In this document: positions 1 to 52,409 of the stretch, piece by piece
How positions within the stretch are numbered: the stretch's first letter is position 1
Layout: every line of letters starts with the position of its first letter
Assembly: GCA_050084515.1 (NCBI GenBank)
Contig: CM114271.1
Coordinates: forward strand, 45,074,001 to 45,138,000
Length of the DNA: 64,000 bases
Direction: 5' to 3'
Source of the DNA: Blasia pusilla
Lineage: Eukaryota
Notes under the pieces: generated by a model
Database searches by the model: none
What the model was told of the DNA's origin: nothing
The model's input: the letters and a program-made list of their open reading frames with translations, nothing else
Program-made: the position numbers and the translations under genes

Positions 1-2207
1 TCTTCATCCCATTTCTAAACTTGAGTATAAATAGTGGATTGATATCATCCACATTCTCCGGATACATGTTGACATCAATCTTGGGTTGGATCCAAAATGC
101 AAAGATCTATGTAATGCAAACATGCTCCGAACTCCCTCCGTCTATGAGTCTGAAACCAACACTTGTAAGATTGTTCACTTCCTCGTGAGTGCAATTGATC
201 CCTACAGCAATACGCCTAATCGTGGGGGTATTCCCTGGAGCTCCAATGGTAGTTGGATAAGATGTTCCCAAAGCGCATGATTCATTTGGGCAGAATAAGT
301 ACTTCAATTGAACCCCGGTTCTCGTAAAATGATCAAAAGTTTTCAGCCCCAAGAAGCCTGGCACTGATCGTCCTGTCCTTGTAAAATTCTTATTTAGGAT
401 AGTGCCACATGCTCTCCTAAATCCATTTGATCCTGCTCTGCAAGTGGAGCCACGTCCAGGGTTGCTTCGAGAAATATGCCTCCGCTTGAGGTTGCAATCA
501 ACCTCAATGACCGGAATCCCATACTTTTGAACTTCCACCGAGACTGTCTGTTGGGAAGTTCTAGCAAAAGAGGCATTTTGAAATAAAACATTCATTAATT
601 TTGAAGGATTTCTTGAATTTGGGAGCAATTCGGTGTCTTCGAATACCTGGGCAGGGTAATTTCATCATCCGAATAAACCACCGGATTCTTTCCTTGATGT
701 TGACGCTTGACTTGCTTGAAGTCAATATACTATTTTGGTCTCCAAGAGTCTCGCTCAGACTGCTCTACCACCATCTGTATGGGACATCTCAAAACACATC
801 CACGAATGTCCCCACCAATGTGGACATCTTTCTCGAGAGGAGTTCCACCTACGCATCGGTTGAAGGCTTCCACATACAGTTTTTCATAGATCTTACAGCG
901 GCTCTAACATAGAGCTCATAAATTGAAGGGCCCTTTCCCTTGGTTATGCCTTTTGTGAGGAAGATGTGGAATACTGCAGATTGTAGGATTGCTCTTGCTT
1001 GGTCTTGTTGGCATGCCTCAACGAGAGATATTTTTTGACATGTTTGTGATGAACTCTAGGAGGAATGGACACTCTTGGCTCCATTTGTGTTGGGGCAGAG
1101 GGCATTTTTGTGAATGTTCAGTCCCTGCATAGGAGAACTTGTCAATTGAAGGAGGGAACGCCTAAGTGTTCAACCCTTGCAACCTGTCGCAATCTGACGG
1201 GTTGCAAGCAAGATACAACTATAGGGACCAAAATCTAGCTGCAAGAAGCATTTAGTTGTAAACAACCAACCCGTCAATAAGAAGTATGAACAGAAATTGC
1301 AACCTCCATGTTGCTGACAACTACCAACGCGGGAGTGGTTCGACGGGTTGCAGCATGTAATTTGCAGGACAAGCAGCAATCCGTCGGAATCTGACGGGTA
1401 GCAAGCAGCTTTTTTCCGAAATGTTCTACTTGCAACCCATCCGAATGGGACGGGTTGCAAGTTGAACTTTTTTCACAAAAAATTACTTGCAACCCATAAG
1501 ATTGAAAGATGATTTTTTTTTGCAAAAAAGTTACTTGCAACCTGTCGGATTCCGATGGGTCGCACCTATATGTTTTTCGCAAAAAATCTGCTTGCAACAT
1601 GTTGGAATCTGACGGGTTGCAACCCGTCGGATTCGACGGGTTTCTTAACTCTGATGCAACCTGTTGGTTCCGATGGGTTGCTTAACCTACCTATTTTTCA
1701 ACCCATAGGATTCCGACGTATTGCAACCTCACACTTGGACTGCATACTTGGAGAAAATGGAGAAAACTCAACTGCCGCATGAAGTTTCCCCATTGCCTCA
1801 TGCGAATGGTCCACCAACTAAGCCACAAACACAACTCTTTGTATTTTACCTCAATCGCATGCTTCCTCCACCACACATGAAGCTCTTCTTGGCACTCCAT
1901 GGCTTGTTTCAAGATTTTGCTATCCTTGCAATGTTGAAGTAGAGCTACATGCTCAGTTCTCTTAGTCTACTTGATGCAAGATTTTGTGTAGCGAGTCATG
2001 GACTGCTGCCAATGGCAAGCATCGGAACTTCCCACCCCCCCACCCCCAGAAACACTTCCTTGATAGCGATCCATCCCGGTTGGGCATTGTCCGCCATGAA
2101 GCCATATATTTCAAGAGGAGGTTTTTTTTTTTTTTTTTTTTCCTTCACCACCTCCAATTAGAGTAACCATCACATCTTCAAGCTGTCAACATCTTCCGCT
2201 TTCACCT
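1..2207 (-). pseudogene. MULE (Mutator-like) DDE transposase, 3' portion, degenerate; predicted intron ~1125-1771
   Basis: Manual minus-strand translation: EVKAEDVDSLKM..LEVVKE..PLEIYGFMADNAQPGWIAIKEVF..SDACHWQQS..WLSWWTIRMRQWGNFMRQ | GLNIHKNALCPNTNGAKSVHSS. This contains the MULE second Asp, a CxxH-type motif and an N-x-x-E-S-x-H motif with E mutated to K. The acceptor is ttctcctatgcag at 1125 and the donor is degenerate (cag|ttgagt). Bases 1-330 are homologous to the SWIM-containing fragment at 25.4-26.1 kb. Confidence 0.75.
1177..1728. repeat. Array 1 of ~10-12 degenerate 29-bp palindromes TGCAACCCGTCGGA-N-TCCGACGGGTTGCA, inside the predicted transposase intron
   Basis: Copies seen at ~1177, 1340, 1376, 1430, 1536, 1593, 1618, 1655 and 1697, separated by mostly non-repetitive A/T-rich spacers. 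Confidence 0.9.
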
Positions 2208-2880
2208 CTCGAGGGGGACACTCTACGTATACCTCCTACATCACCTACGACGTTTTGGGGTCGGAAACCCCTAACTTATCAGTGAAATTTTTTTTTCCTC
2301 CCACTTACTTACTTTATGACCCCTACATTTTGTTAAGTAAATTTGTGTCCTTGATTTGTTTAGGGGTTTGAAAGTAAAGATAAGTACGCCTTCACGCGGC
2401 GGTCTTGTATTTTTGCACTTGATAATAGGCTATTAAAAGCTTTCAGAAATACCCAAGCCACTGCCAAACATAGTAATGATATGTAAGGTGGAATTATATG
2501 TATGTTTCCATTTAATCAATATTTAGTGCAACTTCCACTTTCCCTGTTACTTTGACACGTATGACGGAGAGGAATTGAACCTCAGTATGGTTAGGATGCT
2601 CATATGGCCACGCCGTCATCCCCCTAACATATCCCCTCCCAAAACTAGCCTATCATAAACTCATAAAATGACTTCACACTATAACATGCACATCACTTGG
2701 CAAAAGACGATACGTTGCGGATATAATCATTGATCACTCGTAAATCACTGTTATCCAATTCATATATCCTGGATATAAGACTTGGCTTCATGGACAAGCT
2801 CACATTTGAAATCACCATTTCAATGCCAATATATTGGCCATCACATGCATCATATGTGAACAAGGTGTTGCTCTTACCAA

Positions 2881-4520
2881 TTAAGGTATTGCTTTGTGCG
2901 CCGATACCAATTGCACAATATCTGACAAACTTGTCTGTCCATCTTTTAGGAGAGGTCGGTCCAAAAGATCAATAGGAGATCTACATCTACCCCATTGACT
3001 ACCATATTTTTTTTTTATGAATAGAATGCGACCTAACCAAAACCCTTTTGTAGGGACTATTCTGTTCTCATCTAAGTCTTTTTTTTTTCTCTTCTTTGAC
3101 TTACTTGATCTAGTAGAAGGTCCAACTTGTGTAGTAGACTCAAACAAAACACCTACATCACTTCCAATGTCAACATAAAAAGTTGGGCAATCTGGATTAC
3201 TTGGTTCTTTTACCTTACCTGTAGTGTAATATGTTTTCTGTGACATCCGTGTTAGTCTATCTTTAGAAATGAAAGGATTGCAGGCCCAATCACTCACCAA
3301 AGTGGACTTGTAGTATATTCTGCCCTCAAATGTCACAGTAGGCACAACTTTATAAGGAACTCCATGTGTGCACTCCTGCAAAATTGAACTGAAAACATGC
3401 CTTACCTCATGTCTCAATATTTTTGTCTCTGTGGATGGATTATTATCTGCATCCTCAGCCAAGTCCTCACCAATCACTCTAGACTCAAGAAAGGTTGGTG
3501 CATCACTTTCCCAAGCATCAAGACTATTGAAATCCCTCTGCATTGGGTCATCAATTTATGTTTCATCAACACTAGACTCCTCGGGTGGGCAAGGGCCTAC
3601 TGTTGGTCTATGTTCAACAAAATCCTCAAAGTCATCACATGCAACTGTCTCATTTATAACAGCAGAATCAGGCCACGTCTGTGCCTTCACATCTGATGGA
3701 TGCAACCACCATTGCCTTTGACCTGTAGGCAAAGAGGACCTAGGAGACATACTTAACCTACTCAATATAGATTTTGCTTCATCCAAACCCTCTTTAAGGG
3801 CATGAACTACTAGCTCATTAGTCTGAATTAATGAATATTCAAACAAGTTATGAGCATCTTCTCCTATACCTAACGGATGGAGAGTTCCCCACACATGATC
3901 TTGCTTTGGGTGAGACTAGTCAATCTTTAATCCTTCTGGTCCAAATTCCAAGCCAGCCAGTCTATTCAATCCCACCGCACTCTCCAACAAAGAACCAAAA
4001 TCATAGTTCCGTTCATAGGCATTCATTCCACCTACCTTGCTGAAGAAGATCTCACAACAATCAGATCCTAGGAGGTGAAATGGAACTTGCAAGTATGGAT
4101 ACTTGTCACGGAAAGCACACATTAGTAATACAATAAAATGGCAAGACATGTTGATATCATGGAAAGCTTGCACTGATATCATGTTCTTCTTTGTCACAGA
4201 TCCTACACTCCTTGTCATAGAATGATCACCATATCTCAGCCAAAGTGTCTAGAGTTGAAAGAACCACGACACTTTAGATGCCAAAACTACACGACTCTTC
4301 AGGTCATACTTACATGAGAAGAAAATATCAATGTAATTACCACAAAACTCCAAGTATAGTTGGGTCCCGAGGCTTCTGTCATGGCGAACATCCATTCTCT
4401 CAAACATATCCTACAAACAAGATAATATTCTCTTTGAAGAAATTCCTTGAGGCCCATCCCAATTATGTCTGCCAGTCCTATTCACATCATCCCACTTCAA
4501 GCCATGCTCATGGATTTTGT
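2881..4520 (-). pseudogene. P-element/THAP9-like transposase, 3' half
   Basis: KIHEHGLKWDDVNRTGRHNW..GTQLYLEFC..PFHLLGSDCCEIFFSKVGG (resembles the D-x-x-E-x-x-F catalytic Glu region), then ORFs 3556-3894 and 2881-3543. It continues the protein that stops at 8466 on the opposite strand. Confidence 0.6.
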
Positions 4521-5097
4521 CTATATGCTTTGAATTTTGTACAGGAGACCAAGTAGGAGGAGGAGTTTTCAGATAGAGACTGTGTAGTTAATTGGGAGCG
4601 GCATGATAGTTGCCAAAGAGTAACTATCAAGGGAAGCTACTTCTATTCTTTGCTTTAGAGCATGGATCCCGAGCTACCAATGCATATGATTGTTTGGTAG
4701 CCACAGTATACCTCTACTGCAAGCCTCAATGAGATAAGGCTACCACTCTCAAGGAGCTGGTATTTCCCCCTAATGATACTTTTAGATGAATTCACTTGCA
4801 ATAGTCTTTGTAATGATCACAAAGAGCTTTCATCCTAGATTTCCCTCTACAACAAAAAATTGAGTTGTAACATGTTATCGCCTCAAGCAAGGCTTTTGCT
4901 CACTCCTCTTCAATGTGGGGAAAATTTCTTCAAATACCCCGGAATCGAGCGACATGTCCTAGAGTTTTGGCCTGGAATTCTCCAATAACCGCATCTGATA
5001 CTCTAGGGGTAATTGCACACAAAATGTTTTAACACCTTTAGTAAACTATTCAAAATATATAATAGCATGGATAAGATTGTAAGATACAAATTGAGAC

Positions 5098-5410
5098 CAC
5101 TACGTTTCTGCTTGTGTTTGCACAAGCATAAACGTGGTTGATACAATGCACAACCCTTATGTTGCTCCTGATGCACTCATCTTCTTGCATCACTATTGTG
5201 ATGGATGCAAGGTATATCATGCTAGCATATACGACTTAGTGTAGTGTCGTAGATGTCCCCGTGCTTGGTGTTATGTTCAGACCCCAGGAGGCAAGAGACA
5301 CTTGCACAAAGGCTGTGATGATAATGGCAGGTGGAATTTTGGTGAGTGGCGACTTGTGTATTGCCGTCATCATACAATTCCAAAGGGCTAGTGTGTGCCT
5401 ACTCGCGAGT
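5098..5410 (+). pseudogene. EDM2/NSD-type PHD zinc-finger remnant
   Basis: Single frame from 5188: HHYCDGCKVYHASIYDLV*CRRCPRAWCY..HKGC..WRLVYCRHHTIPKG, i.e. an H-x-C-x2-C ... C-R-R-C-P ... Y-C-x2-H pattern. Confidence 0.5.
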
Positions 5411-6000
5411 GAACCTACCATGGCACTAGCCCCTCAACCTTCTTTCTAAGATACTCCACTTGGGTAATAGATGAAAGTTAGGCCACTAGATTTTGGGATT
5501 TAGGACTGAGTATTTAAAAGAAAATGTTTGCCCCGTGGTGGCTTTAAACGGAATGTCTTAAATTAAGGAGATGACATGACTATATATACAAATTTATGCT
5601 AAGTGAGATTGAATGCAAAGTAGCATTTAATTCTAGAATTGCTTTGAATCTTATCTATGGTGTTGTATTCTCTGTTGTGGTTTGTATAATAGGTTTATAT
5701 GTGTATCCTCATAGTTTCCAAAGTTGACTTGTAGTAGAGCTAATTTCAGATTGGTTGAAAAGAGGGGTGAAGGAGAGAATGATGAGAGTATTTGTATTTT
5801 AGGTTACTTAGATGGGCAGACACTAGCAGACATGTGCTTGAAATGTTCTACAATTGTGGAATTTGATTTTGATTTCTGGGACTTCAAGCTCCCTTGTAGA
5901 ACGCACAGGGATGCAGAGAAGGTCATTCTGCTGATGGAATTGGATGGTATAGTAGGCCTATGTTATTCAACAATTACCTGTAGGCCCTTGTGGGAGGACA

Positions 6001-8466
6001 ATGCAAGTGTCCTCCCAATCTTCTTCAACCACCTTGTCTATTATAGCCGAGACTGTAGCAGGTTCAGCTCCAGTGTCTAAGAACCATATTGAAATTGAGG
6101 CACATCCGGTGGGTTTAATTGATATCACAAACCAAGGTTCCGTCCGGACCTCATTTGAGTCAGTGGTGATGGCAGATCCAGCTGCAAAATGCTATAATGA
6201 TGAGATAATGAGATTAGGGAAGTGGGTTGAGAAGAATGGATACAAGGATCACAATTGGAGGGTGAGGACATGGGATGATGGAACATATGTCAGTGGACAT
6301 CTAGAGTGTTTGGAGTGTAGAGTGAACTATGGGAATGCAGAGAATTCCCAAAATGTGAAAGCTATTGCAAATTGCTTTAGCAATTTTAGGACAAAGCATC
6401 TAGTTAACTCGAAACATAAGGATAGCTTCTCTAAGAGAAGGAAATTTCCTACATCATTGATGCAGCCTAGTGACATTGTTCACAGACCTGAATTTGATCA
6501 TGGTGAGGCCATTTCTAGAGGACTAGAGATTGTCTCCCACCTGAATGATGATGTTGGGGGTGATAGGGAGGTATGCCAATATGTCATACCTGTTTAAGGT
6601 CAGGTGTAGGGTGTGTGGAAAGTTGCATACAGACATGTGCCCAAAGAAATTGAATTTGGATCATAATTTGAGACAACACATGGTTAGTCGGGATCACTTG
6701 GATGCCTCTTACGTCAAGGAGGCTTCTGTGGAGATTGCATTGAGGTGCAGGAAGAGAGCGGACCAAGGAAAGCAGATACAAGGGATCAACACCTATCACA
6801 GGGATCAATCTTGAAGTTCTTCACAAGAGATAAGTCCAACGTTGGGAGCTCTTCTGAGAAAGGTGGGTGAGATCGAGCAATAGATCCAGGACTAAGTTTG
6901 CTTTGTTGGGGATTGTGGGATGAAATGGTGAAGTCGAGAGGAGATCGAATGGATGTCAAGGCTGTTCTTGATGATCAAGAGGGAGGAGCCTTGTGGGATT
7001 TTCAGTTAACCTGTTGTGCACATGTTTACAATCCTACTCTAGAGTCTCTAGTGACCATTCAAGGTTGTTTTAGACACAAGCAATGTGAAAGGTTGTCTTA
7101 CAATGGTGGCGGGTTTATGAACCTAACGTGTAGTAAATGTGAGTTAGTAAAGCGATTGGATGATTTCCTTGGTCAGGTGCACAGGGAACCAGAAGCTTTA
7201 GTGCCAAGAGGAGCTAGAGATACCAGGGGGGGGGATATGGTTGGATTGTCTCACCAAGATAGAGCACAGAATGCACGTTGCAAATGTGACTTCCAAATTC
7301 AGAAAGTAACGATGGCTTCTATCAGAGTATGCTGCCAAAGTAGTTGCCTTGAGTACTAGGCGGAGGAAACTAGAGGAATTATTAGGAGTAGCTACAGATA
7401 GGAAGGATCTGAGACTGTTCCTTAGGAATATAGTGAATGGGCATAGGATTGGGGTATTTGGTGGCAAAGAAGGGTTATGGGATTTCATGACAGATGTTGC
7501 TAGAAATCTAACTAGGGCTGCCAAGGGTTTTAGGTACGGTAAAAGAACCATAGCCATAGCCCAAGCATCCTTAGCCCACTGCTTTTAGAAGAACTTAGGT
7601 GGTCCAAGTCTAAAAACATTGAAGTGAGACAGAGCCAAGTTACCATCCTTGAGTTGGATTATGCAAAGAGATATTCATGGAGGTTGGCATAATTTTATAC
7701 GCATCAAAGCAAACTCTTGGAATTGAAGGAGATGTCCTTGTAATATTTGTAGAGGATGAAACAAGGATTAAGGAGAGGCCTAGGTGAGTGTTTTGAGATT
7801 CAATACAACAAATTATAAGCCATCAAGAATTTTCTGCTTGTGAATATAACCTAACATTACAAAGTCATGTCGGACAGATGGGAGGCCAAGTATGATATCC
7901 TGATTGGGTTTTGTGGGCCCAAAGAGGCACACCAATGTTCATATGGAATGGAAGTACTGGTCGGGGAGGGTGATGAGGACTACCATAAGATTGTAAGTAC
8001 TTTCCAAGGTTACTGTAAAGGCATGTATGCTAGAGTTATCATTGTAAATCCTCTTCATGAGTCTATGCCTAAATTGGCCATCTGTGTTACTGCCACATGT
8101 AACAAGTTCACTGCAGATTGGGTGAGACAACATCGGGTGCAGCTGAAAGCAATGTGGGATGAGTATTGTCGAGGTGATGTCGGGCCTTTATTAGGACATG
8201 CCATTGATGGGGATGCTTGTCGTAGAAAACTAATGATGGAGGATTTTAGGGGTGTTAACTCTACTACACCTAGGTATAGTGTGGGGTGGGAAGGATGGCA
8301 GTATTCTGTCTCTATTCTTCCTAATGGTGATTTGTATGGCTTTGGAGACCAAGATGCACCTCACAATGGGAAAAAAAAATTTAATCCGTCGGATAGATGC
8401 TCGCCTACTTGTGTCCTTGGAGATCAACACGCATCTTTGTCATATGTGACAAATGTCTATAACCAC
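6001..8466 (+). pseudogene. P-element/THAP9-like transposase, 5' half (zinc fingers plus catalytic core), predicted intron 7784-7877
   Basis: Two C2H2-like fingers (CLEC..KHLVNSKH; CRVC..QHMVSRDH). Core motifs: VIFVEDETR | WEAKYDILIGFCG, GHAIDGDACRRKLM and DQDAPHNGKKKFNP (P-type D-x-P-H-x-x-K). A GT..AG intron joins the frames. Confidence 0.6.
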
Positions 8467-8469
8467 TAG

Positions 8470-8960
8470 GAAGTGCAGATACGGACACAAGTAGTTCAAC
8501 TGATCATTTGCCGATTCTGACTATACTGATTACACAATTACACAGTTAAAAACTCATCCCACTACTTGGTCTCCTACACAAAATTCACAACACAAAGCAA
8601 GAAAGGATTCTGATATTGCTAAGCTACTCACTTGCCATAATTGTTCCACACATTTAGTCCTCTTCATCCATTGCCCAGATCTATTGCACTGCTAAATAAT
8701 GTCTATTGAGATCCCAATCGCCTCACAGTCTCTATCTCGGCTGAAAACTCCTCCCCTACTTAGTCTCCTATAAAAATTCACAAAGACACAAAAGGAAGAG
8801 CAGATCACGGACACAAGTAGTTCAGCTGGTCACTTGCCAGAATAGTTCAACACATTCATTCCTCTTGATTCATTGCCTCAATGTGTTGCACTGGTAAGTA
8901 ATGTCTATTGGAGATCCCAATCAGTTGAAGTAGATGGTATGATGAAGAGTTATAGCAAAT
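8470..8960 (+). repeat. Tandem degenerate copies derived from the LINE 3' region; an inverted copy lies at ~4521-4610
   Basis: Shares tacttggtctc..aaaattcacaa, gattcattgcc, actggtaagtaatgtctattgg and aagtagatggt with 13890-14090. Confidence 0.7.
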
Positions 8961-9303
8961 CAACATCACCTACCCAACCACTACCCTGCTCTGAGCTTGA
9001 AACACAGACATAGCAAAGCTTCTCTAGCAGAAAATGTCTACTCCTTGATTGTAAACGGATATGCAAGTGAAGTTCATTACTTTGCCTTTTCATTGTTCTC
9101 ACAAAACAATGAAAAGAAGTGTGTTTATACATACACAATATAAACACACTTCTGTGTATTTATATTGTGTGTGTGTTTATATTATATACATACACTCAGT
9201 AGTGTGTGTATAAACATACTCCCCATGAGACGGTCTAATACATGCTGAAGATGGACTATCATGTGCATCTGAGTTTGAAGAAGCCCCGCCCACTTCATTT
9301 GGA

Positions 9304-14413
<5,110 letters not shown>

Positions 14414-15500
14414 GAAGCTCTCTTTATGTTGCATACTTTGTCTTGTTTCTCTCTGCCATGTTGGATCATGTTGCGCGATCATGTCTATTTGCATTTCACT
14501 TATTATTCAAACGCATACGAGTGGCAGTCGAACATTCTGTCTCACGAGATCTTCTAATAATTAGGAGTGACAAATGTCGCTTGATCTTGATCTCTTCATC
14601 TGAGTGTGAGAGAGAGAGAGGACAACGGAGGCACTCACCGTGATAAGAGATACATGAGCAGCGAAGACGGTAAAGATGAGCAGCTCCAAGCTCTTTCCTT
14701 TCTCGTTTGGAGGGGGATCAGCAGACTTTGGAAAAGATCATCGCCTGCGAGGGAGAGCAAGAGAGGGGCAGGTGAAGCTCAAAGTTTGCAACGAGGGAGA
14801 GAGCAGCAAAGAGGGGGCGGAGGGAGATGAGGGTTTAGGCGAGGGGGGTGGTAGTTTTCGAATCAAAACATCTTCCGTCTAGGGCAAGAGCAAGAGAGGG
14901 GCGGGTGAAGCTCGTTAGCAACGAGAGGAGACGAGAGAGCAGCAAAGCGGGGGAGAAAGACAAGGGTTTAGGCGGGGGTGGCCATTTTGAATTGAAATGT
15001 CTTCCGATTTTCTGATCAGGCCAATCGTGTGCGATATTTCTAGGGAAAAGTGATACACTTCAATAAAAATGTTTGAGATTTCTAGGGCAGGGAGTGAAGA
15101 CTTCGTGATCAGTCTCATTTTGAAAGTTTCAGGTCGATCATAGTGTCGTGCTAGCTCTCTCTATGTCTATGGGGAGTGACTTGGTAAGATTTCTTGAAAA
15201 GAGTTGAGGTGGGCAATATGGGTTTAGGGTTTAGGCGAGGAGGGGTGTGTCGTGAAAATGATTAAAAAATAAAACATACCACTCTCCAAAAACAGTAAGT
15301 GCCCAAAGTCACATACCTTGCCAATTCAAATTCAACATAAGTTAGGATAAAAAATCATCCTATTTTTTTGAACTGAAAAATTAATGCTAGCCTAAATTTT
15401 TTTTTCCAAAAGAAGCAATCCAATCATACGAATATAGAGACTTCAAATCTGAACCTAAAAATCGTCTCCCATTTCTTCTTTGACTATGGAAGCGATAATG

Positions 15501-16880
15501 GCAGATCTAAACCGTTGAAAATTGCAACGCATTTAATTCAAACACATGTTCCAAGTTTCAACACCATCCAATGGTTGGAACAAAACATACCTCGATGTCA
15601 ACATGAAAATGAAACAAACCCTTGAAACAAATACTTGAAACATTCCTACTCGGAGCCATCCTCTTCCGTCTTGACCCCTCATTTTCTTCCCTCCCCCTCA
15701 ACCAGGGTTCCAAAAATCATGTAAATTTTCCCAAAGACGCACTCCAAGCCCAGTAACACAGGGGAAAAATCAAAACTTAAAATGACCATCCGCACATGAA
15801 AATAAAAATCGTAAACCCTAGAAATGGTCTCTTAATTTTTATTTTAGTATAGAAGCCAATAAAGCAGATCTGAACCGTTGAAGTTTGCAAGAGATTTAAT
15901 TCAAAGGCATGTGCCACGTTTCAACACCATCCAATGGTTGGGACAAAAGATACCTCAATATGAGCATGAAAATGAAACAAACACTTGAAACATTCCTACT
16001 CGAAGCCATCCTCTCTCGTCTTGACCCATTGTTTTCTTCCCTCCCCTCAACCAGGGTTCCAAAAATCATGAAACTTTTTCCAAAGAGGAAATCCAAGCCC
16101 AAGAACACAAGGGAAAAATCAAAACTTAAAATGACCATCCACACATGAAAATAAAAATCGTAGACCCTAAAAATGGTCTCTTAATTTTTATTTAAGTATA
16201 GAAGCCAATAGAGCAGATCTAAATCGTTGAAATTTGCAAGAGATTTAATTCAAAGGCATGTGCCACGTTTCAACACCATCCAATGGTTGGGACAAAAGAT
16301 ACCACAATATGAACATGAAAATGAAACAAACATTTGAAACATTCCTACTCGGAGCCATCCTCTTCCGTCTTGACCCCTCATTTTCTTCCCTTCCCCTCAA
16401 CCAGGGTTCCAAAAATCATGTAAATTTTCCCGAAGACGCACTCCAAGCCCAGTAACACAAGGGAAAAATCAAAACTTAAAATGACCATCCGCACATGAAA
16501 ATAAAAATCGTAAACCCTAGAAATGGTCTCTTAATTTTTATTTTAGTATAGAAGCCAATAAAGCAGATCTGAACCGTTGAAGTTTGCAAGAGATTTAATT
16601 CAAAGGCATGTGCCACGTTTCAACACCATCAAATGGTTGGGACAAAAGATACCTCAATATGAACATGAAATTGAAACAAACACTTGAAACATTCCTACTC
16701 GAAGCCATCCTCTCTCGTCTTGACCCCTCGTTTTCTTCCTTACCCCTCAACCAGGGTTCAAAAAATCATAAAGTTTTTTCCCAAAAAGGCACTCCAAGCC
16801 CAAGAACACAAGAGAAAAATCAAAACTTAAAATGACCACCCACTCATGAAAATAAAAACCGTAAACCCTAATTTTGGTCT
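15501..16880. repeat. ~350-bp tandem repeat x4, subterminal in the P-like element
   Basis: Unit anchor gcagatct(a/g)aa at ~15501, 15864, 16214 and 16563. Repeated MCHVSTPSNGWDKRY pseudo-ORFs. Confidence 0.95.
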
Positions 16881-17096
16881 CCTATTTTTTTATCTGTCCC
16901 TTACTTCCTTGAACATCTTCCATGAACAAACGAATAATTAATAATGCCCTTTTATTATTATAAGTGTTACCCTATATTAAAAAATACCCTTAAGTTCTTC
17001 CACAAAACTTTATAAGTCTTCCCTAAAATCGAATTAAAAAACCCTATACTTTGTCGTACGTGATAGGTCTCTTCCGTGGAAGTGAGACCCCCCGAG

Positions 17097-18680
17097 TTTC
17101 ACCTCACACACAAAGATGGTTTTGAGACCCTTCTCCACATGGTCGTAAACGTGTGCACCCATGGTCAACCATCCATTTAACACCCTGTAGCAAATACCAA
17201 AGCTAACCTAGCTCCCAAATAGATCTTCTCTCTTCCTCATTCTGTCAATAAGATCGAGGCCGCTAGACGGCCTTGTAATAGATATTTTGAAGATAAAATC
17301 TCTAGATCCCTCACCTCCTTGGCCCATGAACTGCCATCTCTGAATGAATGGAAACAGTGAGTTGGCCTTGATCTTGGCAATGACATTCACCTTCGCGGTC
17401 TTTCCATCAAGTATTCGTATTTGACGCAAAGAGTTCTTGAAGCTTTGAGGATCTGCCAAGAATGCTAGATTTTCCCACAGTTGTTTCTCCTCAACTGCCG
17501 TGATCTCCCCTTGGTCAGGAATACCCAATAATTGTTCATAAATTTGTGATGCAGTTGTCAATTTGATCACTCTGGGCTTTGATCGTGGAGAATATTTGTA
17601 CACCTGGCCACTTTGTTTGCCACATCCTCCTTGATGTGGCTTTGAATTGCACCCGTGACAAGATGAGTTTGAGACCCAACATGAATTTCCAACCTTGTGT
17701 ACTCGGACGTAGAACTGTAGTGGTGCATTATGAAAAAATATAATCTTGACACGCTCTAACACAAAAAGGGAGGCTTGATAATGAGGACATCGATGGCTAC
17801 CCGACGGTATGGTCGTATCCACGGCGTAAAGAGTTTCTGAAATTTTGGGGGGGAATTATGACGTATTCACTACTCCGTTCCGCTCAAGGAAGGGGCATCC
17901 TGGACCTCTATACTCTAAGGCTCCAATGCATTGGCGACGAGATACAATCCAAGGACCATCTGGGATTGAAGCGCTCGTCTGCTGTAGTCTGCACCATTGG
18001 TGACAACCCGATTTTTGGTCCATACCCTTCAAGCGCCCTCCATCTTTCTTCTAAGCAGGACCCATAAGAGGAGGCAACTAAAAAATGCAGTTTCCATCAT
18101 ACCTTGCTTGAAGCTCATCCACGAGAATGTGCTTGAACAATTTCAAGTGAAGAGAAGAAAGCGAAGAATTCCCCGATACTCGAAGCAAGAATGAGTAAGC
18201 AGATGTTGGGTCTAACAGGTTTCCAACAAATCCTATGAGATCGACGACATCCAAAATGTCCACATCTTCAACCGTATTGTTGGTAGCTTGTGAGTTTGGA
18301 GTTGATGTTGGATCGGCCAAAGCAGCCGTGCCAAACGTGGAGCATGGAGCACTCAAAGTTTTCAGACCATCTTTATGAGTTGGAGAAGGCCTCAGAGGTA
18401 GGCCATAATTAAACTCTGAATTGTCCATTGGAGTAGGGTAAGAGGTTCCACACTTTGGACCCTCCAATCTCTGGTTGGATAGTTTCATCAATGAGGTCAT
18501 CCATTCCATCAGCCTTGACATCCTTGGATACAAAGATGGATCCAATCTTGAGCAGAAATCGGAGTGTTCTTCAACAATTACATGAGTTTCACAAGGTTGG
18601 GCTCAAAATTATCTCCAATTGAGGAAGGGCCGCTAGATGACTGCCACATGTGAGCTTCACATAATTGTCCATTTGGGTGA
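17097..18680 (-). pseudogene. MULE transposase, 5' portion, degenerate
   Basis: RYDGNCIF*LPP..GMDQKSGCHQW..CIGALEY..CPF; FIFKISITRPSSGLDLIDRMRKREDLFGS*VSFGICYRVLNGWLTMGAHVYDHVEKGLKTIFVCEVK (first catalytic Asp region, D mutated to G). Joins in frame to 2207 across the TSD. Confidence 0.75.
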
Positions 18681-18885
18681 GAGACCACAGATATGATTCG
18701 CCGAGATAGGAGAATAAGAATAAGAATGTTGAATTTATAGTGAACAATGTCCTTTATACTCTAACAAAATATCTCTGACATACAATTGGTAGTTAGGTTG
18801 AACCATCGCCAGTTGACTAGACTTGCCAGAAAGGAATATTTGGACATCCTTGCTCATGACATGGGAAAGATCTGCTAGGGGTCCT

Positions 18886-19544
18886 TCAACCCGTCAGAAT
18901 CCGACGGTTTGAATAGCTAGAGAGCCCGAAGGGGCTGACAGGGAAATCTGCAACCCCCTCTAAATTGGAAGGGTTGGAAGGGATAATTTAGGAAATTGCA
19001 ACCCGTTGAAGTCCGACGGGTTGGAAATCCTGAAGTAGGATGTCGATGGTATGACCCGTCGAGTTGAATTGACGTGAGTTTGGCCCGTCGGATTTCGTCC
19101 GGTCATTTTGCAATCCGTCGGACTCGACGGGTTGCCATTGCAAAGGTCCAAATGTCTTGGTCGGATTCGAGGCCGTGGGAGCGGCACATGGAATCGTGCA
19201 ACCCGTGGGGTCCGACGGGTTGCAAAATGACCAGACGGTATTTCAAGATACTCGTGTAAGCCGTTGGAGTCGAGGGGTTGCACAGGACCATTCTCGTCGA
19301 CTCTTGCAACTCATCAAACTTCGACGCTTTGCAGGAGTTGGGTAGGATTGGCCCCTGTCGGACTCGATAGCTTGCACCGATTTAGCGAGTTGGGTCTGTA
19401 CAACCCGTTGGAGTCCAAAGGGTTGCACGAACTAGGTAGGATGGACCTCGTGCAACCCTTCAGAGTCTGACGGGTTGCAAGTAGAGTCTCGAGCATATTG
19501 CCAAAGCGATGCTGTCGCAACCCGTCAAGCTCTGACGGGTTGCA
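18886..19544. repeat. Array 2 of ~12 copies of the 29-bp palindrome, between the two divergent MULE genes
   Basis: For example tgcaacccgtggggtccgacgggttgca (~19197), tgcaacccttcagagtctgacgggttgca (~19451) and gcaacccgtcaagctctgacgggttgca (~19517). Confidence 0.9.
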
Positions 19545-19915
19545 GCCGGCCCACGTGAAACATGCACCGTAACGGTCCACTGTCATACAACGGGTCGACG
19601 GTCGTTGTTACACCATCGGTTCACCGTCGCACCAACGGTCGAATCCAACGACTCCAAAAGTATATAAGGACCAATTTCGAGGCTTTTCATTTTTTTACAT
19701 TCTATGGTTTTCAGCTCTGCTTTCAACTCCCTTGTTCAGGTGCCTACCAAAATTGACTTTCTAGTTCCTCAGACATTTTGATGGTTGGTCTTTGTCTCTT
19801 CATTTGCGGGCTACTACGGTTGGTGGCGATGGTTCGGATTGAATTGATTTCCTTTAGAGGTAATGACGATTCAAGACTAAACCACTCGCGCAATGTTCGA
19901 TTATCGACTCTTTTC

Positions 19916-21109
19916 ATGATGACTCGCAAAAAATCCCAATCCAGCAAGGTTGGAAGCTTCTCTCCCAAGCCCGGTGGAACTCCCTCTTTAGGTGCGCGAC
20001 GCTCAGCCACAGATATACGGCGCGAGGAAATCGAGGAGCGCGACAGGGAAATCGAGATGAGGAAGTAGGAAATGGTAGTGAAGCAAGCTTTGTAGAAGCT
20101 CGGAAAGCAAGAGGCAAAGCGGGAAGCAAAATTGCTTGCGGAGGCGGAGAAGGCCGAGAAGAAACGCATGGAGGTTGAGATCAAGTAGAAGAAGAGGCAG
20201 GACGCGGCCTACCGAAAAGCCGAATTGGCAAAAGCTAGGAAGGAAAAGGTAGTGACTGTCAAAGAAGAACCCTCCCAACACCCATCGAGAGTGTCGAAAT
20301 GGAGAATGTTTCATCCATGAGGTCGAGTGGTCCTATGCAGGAGACCAACACCGACGAGCTTCTAGAGATCAACAAGGAAGCTCTTAGAATCCCATGTGTT
20401 GAGATCATGGAGATCTCGGAAGGAGAAGGAGAAGAGTCTTTTGCGTCTCAAAACCTTGTTGAAGAATTTGAATTGCTCGCAATTGAAGAGTTTCCAATGG
20501 ACTTGCCGGATGAGGCTCAGAACAGCTCGCTGGACTTGACACATACCCAATTTTTGAGCGGGTAAGCATTGTTCTACAGTTCTCTTTGAATTGCATTGCT
20601 TCCAATTGTAATGAAAATTAGAATTGACAATGGTGACATCCGCGTAGGTGATGAAGTAGATGGCAATGGTGGATGGCCCGAATGCCCCAAGGATTCCTCT
20701 CTGCTCACTCCAAACGATGGAATACGTTCAAGAAATCCAATCCGAGTAAGACATTGATAAGTTGAAGCAATATGTGGCAACTTCATATGTGGATAGCTTC
20801 CCACCTTTCTATGTTCAACCATATGATGAGCATGGAACCCAGGCTTTGGTAACCGAGGAAGACTTGGAGAGTCTGGATGCTTTTTGAAGACTGAGGGTCG
20901 TGGATTTCTAGAAGGCAATAGCAAGAATGCAGTACAAGTGGATGCAAAACTTGTACTTCTTCATCTAGGATGGCAACCACAGATTCATGGCGTGGTCACA
21001 GTTTGTAGCCAAACTCCCTCGAGGCTCATTTTTGCGTGAGGGAGGTGGTCCTCCATCCCTACCCAAATCACATGGCCACGGTGGAAATGGGCATGCACTC
21101 AATGAACAT
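19916..21109 (+). pseudogene. Accessory gene: N-terminal coiled coil and acidic linker plus a ParB/Sulfiredoxin-like (DGNHR) domain; predicted intron 20562-20647 and donor at 21110
   Basis: Frame from 20651: MVDGPNAPRIPLCSLQTMEYVQEIQSE*DIDKLKQYVATSYVDSFPPFYVQPYD..NLYFFI*DGNHRFMAWSQF (DGNHR at 20969-20983). After a frameshift it reads HFCVREVVLHPYPNHMATVEMGMHSMN|gtaagt. The upstream E/K/R/A-rich helix is interrupted only by TAG codons. The ORF track misses the ParB-like exon because of the stops. Confidence 0.6.
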
Positions 21110-21149
21110 GTAAGTATCCTGAAACTTTATTCCCGAATATATTACGGCT

Positions 21150-21778
21150 TCAACCCGTCGGACTCCCACGGGTTGATTCTTTAGTATTTAAAAAAAAAAT
21201 CATTAGCGAGATCATGATCAGTAACCCGTCGGAATCCGACGGGTTGCAAGAGAAAGACTTCCCTGCCGTATTTGCAATCCGTCGGACTTCCACGGATTGC
21301 ATTTGACTTCCTTAATTGAGTTGTCTGGCAACTCGTCAGAGCCCAAAGGGTTGCACATACTCGAGTGGAGCCAACCCAATATGACTGCACCTGCAACCCG
21401 TTGGAGTCCGACGTGTTGCATATTTGGTGGGAAAGGCCCTCATTTGAGTGGCCTTGCAACCCGTCAGAGTCCGACGGATTGCATGGCCACCCAAACAAGG
21501 AGTCATTCCTTAAAGATCATTCGAACCCGTCGGACTCTGACCGTTTGCAAAGCCCCTCAAACCAGCACCTTTCCTTCCCAATATGCAAGGTGTCCGCTCC
21601 AACGAGTTGCAAGGGTAGTCATAATGGGTTGGCTACACTCGAGTATGTGCAACGGTCGGACTCCCCACAGTCGCAAGAGTGGGGATGTCTTGCAACCCGT
21701 CGGACTCCAACGGGTAACAAATCCATGCAAATCGGGACCTTTCGTACAGAATATGCAACCCGTCTGACTCCGACGGGA
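21150..21778. repeat. Array 3 of ~11 copies of the 29-bp palindrome, just after the splice donor of the ParB-like exon
   Basis: Perfect core AACCCGTCGGAATCCGACGGGTT at 21223-21245. Other copies at ~21150, 21272, 21327, 21392, 21455, 21523, 21647, 21690 and 21754. Confidence 0.9.
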
Positions 21779-22460
21779 CTTGGAAGAGAGGGTATAAATT
21801 TTGATTAGGCCAAAATATAAGGAGGAAATAACCATTTAGGGTTGGTAGAGTCTCATGAAGGAAATGAAAATTGAGGATGGAGTTGCCAAAATTAGTCTAC
21901 GAAAATTGAAATGGACTTTGGTAAATAAGAGACCCTTAAAGTCATCCTTGAAACTCATTGGAGTCCCACACGTTGCAAGACATGAGAAGGGAAGCTAAGG
22001 CAAAGAAGCAACATCTCATGAAATCAGATCTTAATAAAGTATGGTTTGAATTCAATGGAGGAATGAGAGGGAACGCTTCTAATCTCATTTTTAGAAAGCA
22101 AGTGATCCATCTTTAGTATCCATTTATTATAGTTCTCCAATGAAGAAATTTCCTCCTTATGATACCCTAAACCCTAAAATACCCTCATGCTTTAGTAAAT
22201 CTGGCTTCCATAGAGAGTGATTTAAGCATGTCAGAAATGGTCTTCACATTTTCAAATAAGTTTCCTAGTCGGAAAAAATGATTATAGTTTGAGCCCCAAC
22301 CCGGTTGACTAGTAACTCTCTTTTAAATATTTCTTCCATTTCAAGTATTGGAGAATATTAAAAAATAGAAGAAGGGTTTGAAGAGAGGTTACGGATTTTT
22401 TCCTTTGCTTTGGAGAGAGACTCTACTCTCTTCATCTCTCCTACTAGAATACCAACCCCC

Positions 22461-49625: not shown

Positions 49626-49883
49626 AGTTCCAGATTGGAGCTTCGGGATCATAGTGCGAGTTCTTAGATTCCAGATTGGAGCTTGGGGATCGTTGTGCAA
49701 GCTGTTTGGTTCCAAGTTGGAACTCAGGCATTTCCGCACGAGTTTTCTCCACTTGCTTGTAGATTTCGGATTGGGGTACGGGAATTTCCTTGCTCTCAGT
49801 TCGAGATTGGACTTGGAGTTCTGAGACCACTCTGATTTTGCTTTGCTTCTTGATGCCAGATTCTTGACACCTTCTGTGATAAT

Positions 49884-50250
49884 GGGGATGAAACATCTAG
49901 CCATTACTTGGTCTCCTGCGCAAAATTCACATCACATAGAGCAATAGCATATGATGATATTGCTAAGCTGGTAGCACGAGAATTTTTCAAGGTACCTTCT
50001 TCACTTGCTTCTCTCTCTATACCCATCCCAATCTCAAGCACCGTCCAACCAGGGTGCGGGGTCTATGGTCGCAAGGCTACGACAGTCACTACTTAATAGT
50101 ACAGTCTTTCTCTCTCTTATTCTGGTAGCACAAGAATTGTTCGACAAATTCAGTAGCCTTGATTCATTGCCCAAAGTTGCTGCATTGGTAAGTAATTTCT
50201 ATTGGGAATCCCAATCAGGTGAAGTAGATGGTGTGGTGAATAGTTTCTTG
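49884..50250 (+). mobile_element. Rearranged 3' fragments of the LINE family seen at 9.5-14.3 kb
   Basis: acccatcccaatctcaagcaccgtccaaccaggg..ggtcgcaaggctacgacag..actacttaat is nearly identical to 14200-14277. The segment equivalent to 13965-14090 follows it, out of order. Confidence 0.85.
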
Positions 50251-52409
50251 GATGACTGTTGCAGTCGAGGAGCGAAGCTCCCCGAGTAGTTCTCATGATG
50301 TTAATGTCCAATTATCTTGAAGAAAGGTCGCCATCGATCGCTCCTCGAGCGCTTCGACTAATTCCGGTGACAACTTGATCAGGGGCATGGCCGCACTTCG
50401 CAGGATGGGCGTAGAGTCATCACAAGGCATGGCCGTAAATCTATCCTAGTGTGCTCCGCACTTCGGTCTGCTACACAACTTTGTGGTGACTCTGTCCATG
50501 AAAATAACCGTCTGGATAATCAGGGGATGTTTATATAGTCAAGGCACTATGCCGTTTCTTGGTCGTGTCGGCGTGATTGTTACAATCCAGCCGCAGCAGT
50601 CAGGGTCGTCGCTTCGCGCTTTGCCGAAGCTCCCATACCTCTAATATAGTAGTTCTTGCTAATTTGGTTGAAGGTGGAATTTTTTTTAAATCAATTAAGA
50701 TTTAAGTGATATATAAATATATACTTATACTTATATTTATATTTTTGTTACATTCATTGATGCAATAATGCATGGGTTGGTTGTGGAAGAATCCAATGTG
50801 GGACTAATGGTACAGGCTTGAAACTTGCCTAATGCATGTTTTGGCATATTACCAAGATGACAAAAAACGTTGATGGATGGACACATGGGATTACATGATG
50901 AATCATGGTAAGATAGAGTTGATGGATGAACGGATAGGATTGATGGATAAAGTGTGGATGGAGATGGGGTTGACGGATAGAAACTGTTAAGTACAAAGGT
51001 TAGGTTGTAGCCGTCTAGGTTGGCTAGAGTAAGGTCACGACGCTCGAAGCTGAAGTTGGGGTTCGAGTTGTAGTAGCGCGAGGACCGCAGGGCAAAGGCT
51101 CTCCCGTGCATCGGGCAGTTGAAGGGTATAATAAAGGTCAGGCAAGGGAGCTTCGAGGTTGTGGGGAGCCCGCATAGCGCCGCGTGGCCTTAGATGCAGA
51201 GAAAAATGAAGAGAGAGGATGTCCGAGCAGTGCATAGGGGCATAGACCATGCCTGCCCCAAGCCGTGGGTGTGGGCTCATCCGCATAGGGATGCGCACCC
51301 CATGCGGAGTAGGGAGATGTGAAGTGGGAAAGCGTGAGGAAAGGAGAGCAAAGGGTTGGTCGAAGGCCGGAGGACGTGTGGACCCTAAGTGGAGGGTGGT
51401 GAGTTCGGAAGAAGAAGAAGATTTATGGCAGAAAGGCTAGAATGGGAGTCGTGCGGGCCTAAGGCCACAGTGCATAGGAAGTGCGAGTGAAGGTAGGGCC
51501 AGAGTGAGGGGTTGACGGAAAGTTGTCCGGCCGCATGCTAATCGAGCTGGGTCGGGACGGAGTACATAAGCGTTGGCCTAAAGTCAGCCGGTACCCAACG
51601 GAAGTAGTAAGGGGGAGCGGCAAGGTTAGGAGTGGCGTGGAGAGCGTAAGGGTTGACATGGTTAGCGCCAGACCTGGTAGATGGGCTACATGGTTGGGCA
51701 GCAGATGTGGTAAATTTGGGTTATGCAGTAGGAGAGAATTTTTGCGAGCATGGATGGCATTGGCAATGGGAGTTGGTCGACTTGCTAGTACGTTGGCGAT
51801 AGGGGCCGAGATTAGTGTGTCGTGCCCATACACATCCCTACACAACATACATCGCTGTCACCAAACACACACACACAAACACGCACGATCCCATGCTAAC
51901 TCATGGCATCCAAACAATGAGACAAGAAGTACTAAAATATCTCCAATCGTCCCTCTAGCTAGTGGTTAGGTCCCTCTAACTCCAGATACCCATCTATCCC
52001 TACCTACCACAACAAACATCTCTATGACGCTAAGAGATGTTCCAAGTCTTGAAGGACTTGCCATGTTTTGGAAACTAGGAAGTAAGGAAGGTTGAGCTTG
52101 ATGAGATGCCGAGTTGAGAACTCGGTGGGTTGGAACGCTGGTTGGACCAGACTCGACTAACGAGAGTGCGTGTTTGGGTGCAGATCGGCGATGAGATCGT
52201 GTCCTACTGAACGTACGCTTCCGCAACAATAAAGACTGACGTTCAAGGAGAGTAGGAGCACGACAACTGGTATCAGAGCTAATCCTTGGTGAGCGAGAAC
52301 TTGGGGTTGTGGGGATCAACCGGACGCTTGGGAAAACTCAAGGTAGCGGCTAGACTCAAACGCTCGAGGAGGGACGCAAGAAACAAGGAGGAGATCTGAG
52401 TGAGTTGGC

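Follow-up and report, generated by a model that had tools for sequence, protein, structure and literature searches.

A decayed element in Blasia pusilla probably represents a two-gene, THAP-less land-plant lineage of P-superfamily transposons

Animal P elements have CA..TG termini. In Drosophila, the insertion domain of the P transposase binds GTP and the element ends are cleaved with a 17-nt stagger, while the THAP domain is restricted to animals and absent from plants (PMC7776569). Outside animals, P types are described from rust fungi (P-1_PSt, P-1/2_MLP, with an 8-bp target site duplication, TSD, in Melampsora; PMC3164196), from Allomyces (PMC5751038) and, as distant homologues, from Polysphondylium and Aureococcus (PMC3985635). 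These are compared by description only, and the accessible descriptions mention neither a PHD accessory gene nor CTCG ends. No accessory gene for P was described in the P-element literature examined. An earlier note on the DNA studied here, made from its letters, held that P is seldom described in land plants. The accessible parts of two reviews agree, as they do not place P among the plant terminal inverted repeat (TIR) superfamilies (PMC9033089, including its Table 1; PMC10741241), but a survey counts P-element in all groups, land plants included (PMC4438587, Table 2); in its supplement, no cell matches 'P-element'. The present element occupies positions 2208-17096 of a window of 64,000 nucleotides, the whole stretch analyzed, from Blasia pusilla (GCA_050084515.1, contig CM114271.1, positions 45,074,001 to 45,138,000, forward strand). 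With a probability of about 0.82, this decayed element comes from a cut-and-paste family of high copy number that belongs to the P superfamily in the broad sense and forms a land-plant lineage without THAP and with two genes. The P assignment, already proposed in the earlier note, is upheld by recurring ends with 8-bp TSDs and by a P-type transposase fold.

The element interrupts a transposase-like frame of another repeat. The 8-mer TTTCACCT flanks it on both sides, and in-silico excision of the element with one TSD gives an uninterrupted host frame (..VCEVKAEDVDSLKM; on the minus strand ..TIFVCEVKAEDVDSLKM). Among 40 scored paralogues of the host repeat, 15 were fetched, two of them being the window itself and its twin (see below). 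All 13 others are empty sites in which the 8-mer occurs once and the sequence continues across the site. The empty paralogous sites and the restored frame thus establish a real and precise insertion, in agreement with the earlier note. The proposal that 1-2207 and 17097-21778 form one Mutator-like element (MULE) is proven at the junction; its outer limits at 1 and 21778, where no paired terminal repeats were found, and the MULE label are unconfirmed. MULEs are characterized by a transposase profile of their own, long TIRs and a 9-11-bp TSD; no Pfam family matched the host frame, and the label expresses a presumed likeness of motifs. The features at the two ends are:
2200-2207, plus strand: left TSD TTTCACCT, present once in 13/13 empty host paralogues (11 exact).
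2208-2217, plus strand: left outer TIR (3' end relative to the transposase), common form CTCGGGGG, retained in subfamily 2.
2240-2251, plus strand: inner terminal motif ATCACCTACGAC, a putative transposase binding site; motif and spacing are conserved in subfamily 2, the spacer differs.
17053-17064, minus strand: inner terminal motif of the right end.
17087-17096, minus strand: right outer TIR (5' end relative to both genes); the 18-nt common terminus occurs 127 times in exact form.
17097-17104, plus strand: right TSD, the same 8-mer as on the left.
17105-18602, minus strand: interrupted host transposase-like frame, MULE-like by motif only, resuming at 2207 and below.

The ends recur throughout the genome. 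This copy ends in CTCGAGGGGG on the left and in CTCGGGGGGT on the right (reverse complement), with 9 of the first 10 bases in common, and the family consensus terminus, CTCGGGGG, is the same at both ends. The resulting CTCG..CGAG differs from the CA..TG of animal elements, as had been noticed before. Searches of the genome with the two ends gave 304 and 435 candidates (40 scored per end), and the 127 exact matches of the 18-nt right-end pattern contrast with 0 for a control. A right end lay within the fetched range for 18 of 26 left ends tested, and none was present in that range for the other 8. The 18 paired copies comprise 13 with a perfect 8-bp TSD, 3 with 7/8 and 2 with none, so that 16/18 have an 8-bp TSD at 0-1 mismatch, against a background of 4/2,352 unpaired 8-mer pairs agreeing within 1 mismatch. 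The genome-wide recurrence of termini with 8-bp TSDs, the check that the earlier note had suggested, is therefore borne out, as are the coordinates of its TSD and bipartite ends. A 9-bp TSD was considered, because the direct repeat at the window site can be read as 9 bp, but the paired copies fix the length at 8. In this copy, both inner motifs start 32 bp from their ends, as the earlier note had seen. This equality does not hold as a family trait: the offset is 32 bp at 18/23 scored left ends and 31 bp at 28/29 scored right ends, and the 32/32 arrangement here is due to one extra G. Subfamily 2 conserves the outer repeat, the inner motif and their spacing while the spacer sequence has changed, which argues that both terminal parts matter. 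No significant hairpin was found in four folded ends (z -0.9 to +0.7). The only bias of the target site is a weak one, to T in positions 2-3 and to A in positions 6-7 (49 symmetrized 8-mers). Three other copies lie in a transposase fragment of their own family (copy F, C5:7.71 Mb), in TTAGGG-like repeats (L019) and in the short dispersed repeat described below (L011). At G000:C5:3377953-3378097, two right termini stand in opposite orientation 127 bp apart, possibly a miniature element of two right ends.

Full copies are about 10-13 kb long. The transposase core gives 151 matches (65-100% identity) among 150 scored of 641 candidates in this one 390-Mb genome, and 30 close copies have a median identity of 92.8% and, apart from the twin, a maximum of 98.9%. 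No unbroken transposon gene was found in the family copies translated. Copies of intact order give a transposase of about 1,500 amino acids with zinc fingers, a BAH-like tail and no THAP; the N-terminal half shows C2H2-like fingers, with a weak zf-BED Pfam match. No THAP match at E<=1 was obtained with P0218, a full-length relative of 1,492 aa, or with the N-terminal pieces of the family itself. In the window, the gene lies in two halves:
2693-4520, minus strand: C-terminal half, with the rest of the insertion domain, the catalytic E (codon 4051-4053) and the BAH-like barrel; stops and frameshifts.
5715-8468, plus strand: N-terminal half, with the N-terminal domain, C2H2-like fingers and a coiled coil/helix-turn-helix (HTH) region; stops and frameshifts.
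7755-7757, 8206-8208 and 8350-8364, plus strand, within the N-terminal half: catalytic D, catalytic D and QDxxH.
7784-7877, plus strand: predicted intron (94 nt, GT..AG), joining EDETRIKERPR to WEAKYD; inferred from sequence, with no spliced reads.

All four transposase motifs of the earlier note are present: EDET (7752-7763), DGD (8206-8214) and DAPHNGKK (8353-8376) on the plus strand and SDCCEIFFS (about 4039-4065) on the minus strand. What it had not mentioned is that the two strands share them, a consequence of the inversion of 4521-8468 (see below). EDET, SDGD, QDxxH and CExFFS are conserved among relatives, QDxxH being invariant in 25 rows. The intron after the first Asp has the same position and a different sequence in subfamily 2, and the flanking protein is colinear with uninterrupted homologues. 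Compared at the protein level, named relatives 34-62% identical to the transposase are hypothetical proteins of Riccia (sorocarpa, fluitans), Calypogeia fissa, Adiantum nelumboides and Amphiura filiformis, and a further one comes from Nymphon; two R. fluitans entries are labelled just 'Transposase', and the rest are mostly hypothetical or uncharacterized. Clustered at 50% identity, the relatives make up 417 clusters, a broad and coherent group that includes animals. In a quick tree (70 rows, none dropped), the copies of this genome are sister to Riccia (98), and a 32-row branch (SH-aLRT 100) holds all six named plant proteins and 0/3 named animal ones, with 22/32 rows lacking a taxon. These relationships suggest a host of liverwort type and a long residence in plants.

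The fold was predicted for P0003, a Riccia relative with 49% identity to the family copy L121. The model, built on 80 sequences, has a predicted local distance difference test score of 86.6. In Foldseek, its sole match at E<0.001 is the Drosophila P transposase 6P5A (E 6.4e-9; next family 2.7e-3), and VIA-align superposes 339 residues on 6P5A 199-566 (Z 24.3, root-mean-square deviation 3.0), compared with Z 9.1 for RAG and 7.5 for Hermes. The aligned part includes the helical insertion domain between strand 5 and helix 4 (by fold only), and identity to 6P5A is just 11-14%. The enzyme is therefore P-type despite the silence of Pfam. Grouping with another superfamily, which the earlier note had named as a refuting outcome, was not found, since RAG, Transib and Hermes are all much more distant in fold than Drosophila P; the HMM check that it also proposed gave no Pfam P profile on the family's own pieces, and the support comes from the fold. 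The C-terminal barrel (residues 664-816, modelled within the whole protein) matches BAH-bearing proteins in 13/15 rows and chromodomains in 2. Seven of the BAH rows are identified by title and six are presumably BAH proteins. A search of the Atlas with this domain gave only clusters without names.

Like Drosophila P (6P5A/6PE2), the system has a split RNase H core with a helical insertion domain, D-D-E and D(2)H residues, an 8-bp TSD, and an outer repeat plus inner site whose spacing is unequal between the ends. Unlike Drosophila P, it has no THAP and instead carries zinc fingers, an extra N-terminal domain, a BAH-like tail and a second gene. The transposase has about 1,500 rather than 751 aa, the element 10-13 kb rather than 2.9 kb, and the ends a 9-bp outer repeat starting CTCG rather than a 31-bp TIR.

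The second gene, open reading frame 1 (ORF1), lies upstream of the transposase in copies of intact order. It encodes about 215-240 aa with its own ATG and stop, and occurs in two subfamilies whose versions are 24% identical. ORF1 has weak Pfam matches to NSD-type PHD domains, and a profile search leads to NSD2 (E 1.3e-10; residues 667-838 matched with E 2.7e-9). The PHD cassette is common to NSD2/NSD3; ORF1 stands alone and has no SET domain. Six stand-alone homologues of 215-239 aa occur elsewhere. Three further metagenome matches are unrelated chromatin proteins, and three close metagenome contigs (1.1-1.9 kb) show no transposase but are too short to tell. A reading of ORF1 as a 5' exon of the transposase gene found no support: it has its own stop, its reads end near L157:5350, and the full-length P0218 lacks it. 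Several dozen ORF1-like genome matches at 33-41% identity, much more divergent than the two subfamilies examined, probably mark further families with a PHD ORF. In the Atlas, a look-alike cluster of 1,258-aa proteins, 16% with PHD_NSD (one cnidarian record), is a lead to a PHD cassette fused in animals. In the window, only the 3' part of ORF1 is left:
5133-5420, plus strand: ORF1 3' remnant (NSD-type PHD cassette), its start lost with about 660 bp of upstream sequence.

ORF1 is transcribed as a spliced sense RNA. Three runs from the same species were searched, 6-12% of each being read, at 88% likeness. ORF1 is covered in sense in all three, to a depth of about 5-16, and its reads have one common variant set. 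On its 5' side, 13 reads (one run) pass over a GT..AG joint into leader sequence that is present at four loci and absent from the window's own lineage. At one locus, the leader lies 0.96 kb inside the right end; a GT comes directly after it, and the CAG acceptor stands some 4 kb further. The variable cargo region between the two is thus an intron in that sub-lineage.

The copy in the window is dead. The earlier note lacked the inversion, the nested long interspersed nuclear element (LINE), the PHD gene and the twin copy, all four of which were found here. The internal features are:
4521-8468, plus strand: internal inversion, only in this copy and its twin; copies B, C, D, F, G and H are colinear across the left joint.
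9516-13800 (ends approximate), plus strand: nested LINE with reverse transcriptase (RT; PF00078, E 3.4e-14), behind a (CT)n tract.
15454-16890, plus strand: subterminal tandem array near the 5' end, 4.1 copies of 350 bp with 88% matches; related arrays occur in other copies.

The inversion (3,948 bp) splits the transposase, with a 1-bp ambiguity and nothing lost at the joints, and about 660 bp including the ORF1 start are deleted near 5125. Other full copies, the twin excepted, lack the LINE. The LINE has endonuclease- and RT-like frames, and its position directly behind a (CT)n tract of 209 bp may point to microsatellite targeting. The twin, 3.7 Mb away (G000:C1:41325000-41360300), has the inversion, deletion, LINE and array in common with this copy at 97.9% identity, with many small indels, and the likeness extends into the flanks across all of the 35 kb that were fetched (window 1-30000 compared). 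Common damage and flanks therefore indicate a later duplication or an uncollapsed haplotype rather than a second jump. Joint travel of the host element with the insert was rejected, as the alignment covers all 35 kb. The element would first have entered the transposase gene of the host repeat; inversion, deletion and the arrival of the LINE would have followed, and last the copying of the damaged element within a duplication of at least 35 kb. An inversion through inverted repeats resembling short interspersed nuclear elements (SINEs) was rejected, because the joints are blunt and the repeat is merely carried inside. Mixed orientation also occurs in copies E (C5:19.86 Mb), I (C6:3.06 Mb) and L088, so that 55 stretches, some of which overlap, contain four separate cases; these and a further inversion at C4:41.13 Mb, internal or terminal, all have different joints.

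The classification has to be weighed against two alternatives. The tested features of P elements in the broad sense are all seen, namely the fold, the D/D/E triad with the D(2)H motif (named in PMC3698922), the insertion domain and a TSD of 8 bp, within the 7-8 bp expected of the superfamily; those of the animal THAP-type elements (P, 1360, Galileo, THAP9), an N-terminal THAP, CA..TG ends and a single gene, are not. A separate superfamily, sister to P, with the same fold and TSD and deserving its own name, would account for the 11-14% identity to 6P5A, the lack of any Pfam P profile over cut-off, the CTCG..CGAG ends, the absent THAP, the second ORF and the breadth of the group of relatives. 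It is unlikely, since the alignment at 3.0 Å takes in 339 of the approximately 368 residues that make up the P core, insertion domain included, the D(2)H motif and TSD length are the same as in P, and Atlas neighbors under 0.9 carry P-type Pfam families (a lead only). An 8-bp TSD with a short outer TIR also suits a hAT transposon, and P and hAT transposases fall in one clade (PMC3985635), but the fold contradicts this reading (Hermes Z 7.5 and Foldseek E 0.057 versus 24.3 and 6e-9 for P) and the hAT dimerization domain is absent among the 22 Pfam families of 80 members, which leaves it hardly credible. Several results weigh against placement in the P superfamily with two genes. The structure model belongs to P0003 and not to the window protein, and the BAH-like call stems from middling Z values of 5.8-7.1. 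Pfam P profiles (PF21787-9 and PF12017 were considered) found no match on the window fragments or the long ORFs of other copies, where only the LINE RT and weak zinc-finger/AT-hook matches appeared; among relatives, PF21787 occurs in 4/80 (best E 0.0022) and PF12017 in 1/80, weakly, none passing its own cut-off. Sequence and profile searches of the PDB with the transposase gave no significant match, and the tree rows come from this lineage only, with no canonical P sequence among them. The transposase is nearly without RNA reads and its intron has none, and the expressed ORF1 locus was not found, the best of 18 loci carrying 27/34 read variants.

Two further doubts concern the second gene and the inversion. 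ORF1 could be captured passenger DNA without a role in transposition: variable cargo, Copia and SINE-like pieces among it, occupies the region from ORF1 to the right end, the ORF1 copies contain stops as does the transposase, and the transcript may stem from one locus. This is rather unlikely, as, among the 150 ORF1 matches listed, at least 25 are paired, by eye, with a listed core match of the same strand that lies about 3 kb downstream, the pairing continues down to 44-52% identity, no zinc ligand varies among 8 aligned sequences, and ORF1 has its own spliced leader. The inversion, in turn, could be an assembly artefact, given that indels account for most differences of the twin, which might be a haplotype left uncollapsed; with the same clean inversion in both copies, 3.7 Mb apart and 97-98% identical, and inversions of their own in other family copies, this is very improbable.

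For the two-gene P element, ends, TSDs and fold together argue for cut-and-paste with an 8-bp stagger. The zinc fingers of the transposase, in place of THAP, may bind the inner ATCAC(C/G)TACGAC, and its HTH region the outer CTCGGGGG. The D-D-E RNase H core would cut, probably using GTP in the helical insertion domain by analogy with Drosophila P, and the ends would be joined into target DNA with the 8-bp stagger. ORF1 transcription would start near the right end, with splicing across the variable cargo region. An accessory gene beside the transposase is also found in the plant transposons PIF/Harbinger, MuDR and CACTA, and the anti-silencing factors of VANDAL elements are transposon accessory proteins. 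ORF1, most likely a trans-acting chromatin reader, might together with the BAH-like tail steer insertion or shield the element from silencing, a role to which we give somewhat less than an even chance. A still more tentative picture is that of an old land-plant P-type lineage in which zinc fingers replaced THAP and a two-gene system, PHD reader plus BAH-like domain, reads histone marks for targeting or anti-silencing; the PHD gene would be transcribed and the transposase quiet, and the lineage would be abundant in non-seed plants yet missed both by Pfam and by the routine annotation of repeats.

The novelty lies in the two-gene plan. The literature searched contained no description of the lineage, with most subscription journals and Repbase outside its coverage, and a Repbase entry may exist. 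The accessible part of a liverwort genome paper gives 0 P-element bases and 26% unclassified repeats (PMC12130436). Since the P-type family has at least 150 core matches in this one genome of 390 Mb, and relatives occur in liverworts and a fern, the lineage may make up part of the unclassified repeats in non-seed plants. It provides a natural way of telling general P features (GTP cofactor, long staggered cut) from animal add-ons (THAP, CA ends), and its PHD gene is a specific candidate for a chromatin reader encoded by a transposon.

Some minor observations concern the surroundings. The host family has about 2,000 candidate matches in the genome and no Pfam match, and palindromic repeats of the GCAACCCGTCGGA type cluster around the host element (window 1165-1730, 18870-19550 and 21130-21980). 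A dispersed short repeat, SINE-like or a transposon end, lies at window 8470-8950, 13865-14300 and 49872-50256 and in several copies; it attracts many RNA reads with loose ends. Beside a subfamily-2 copy, L116:851-1816 holds another transposase-like ORF without a Pfam match.

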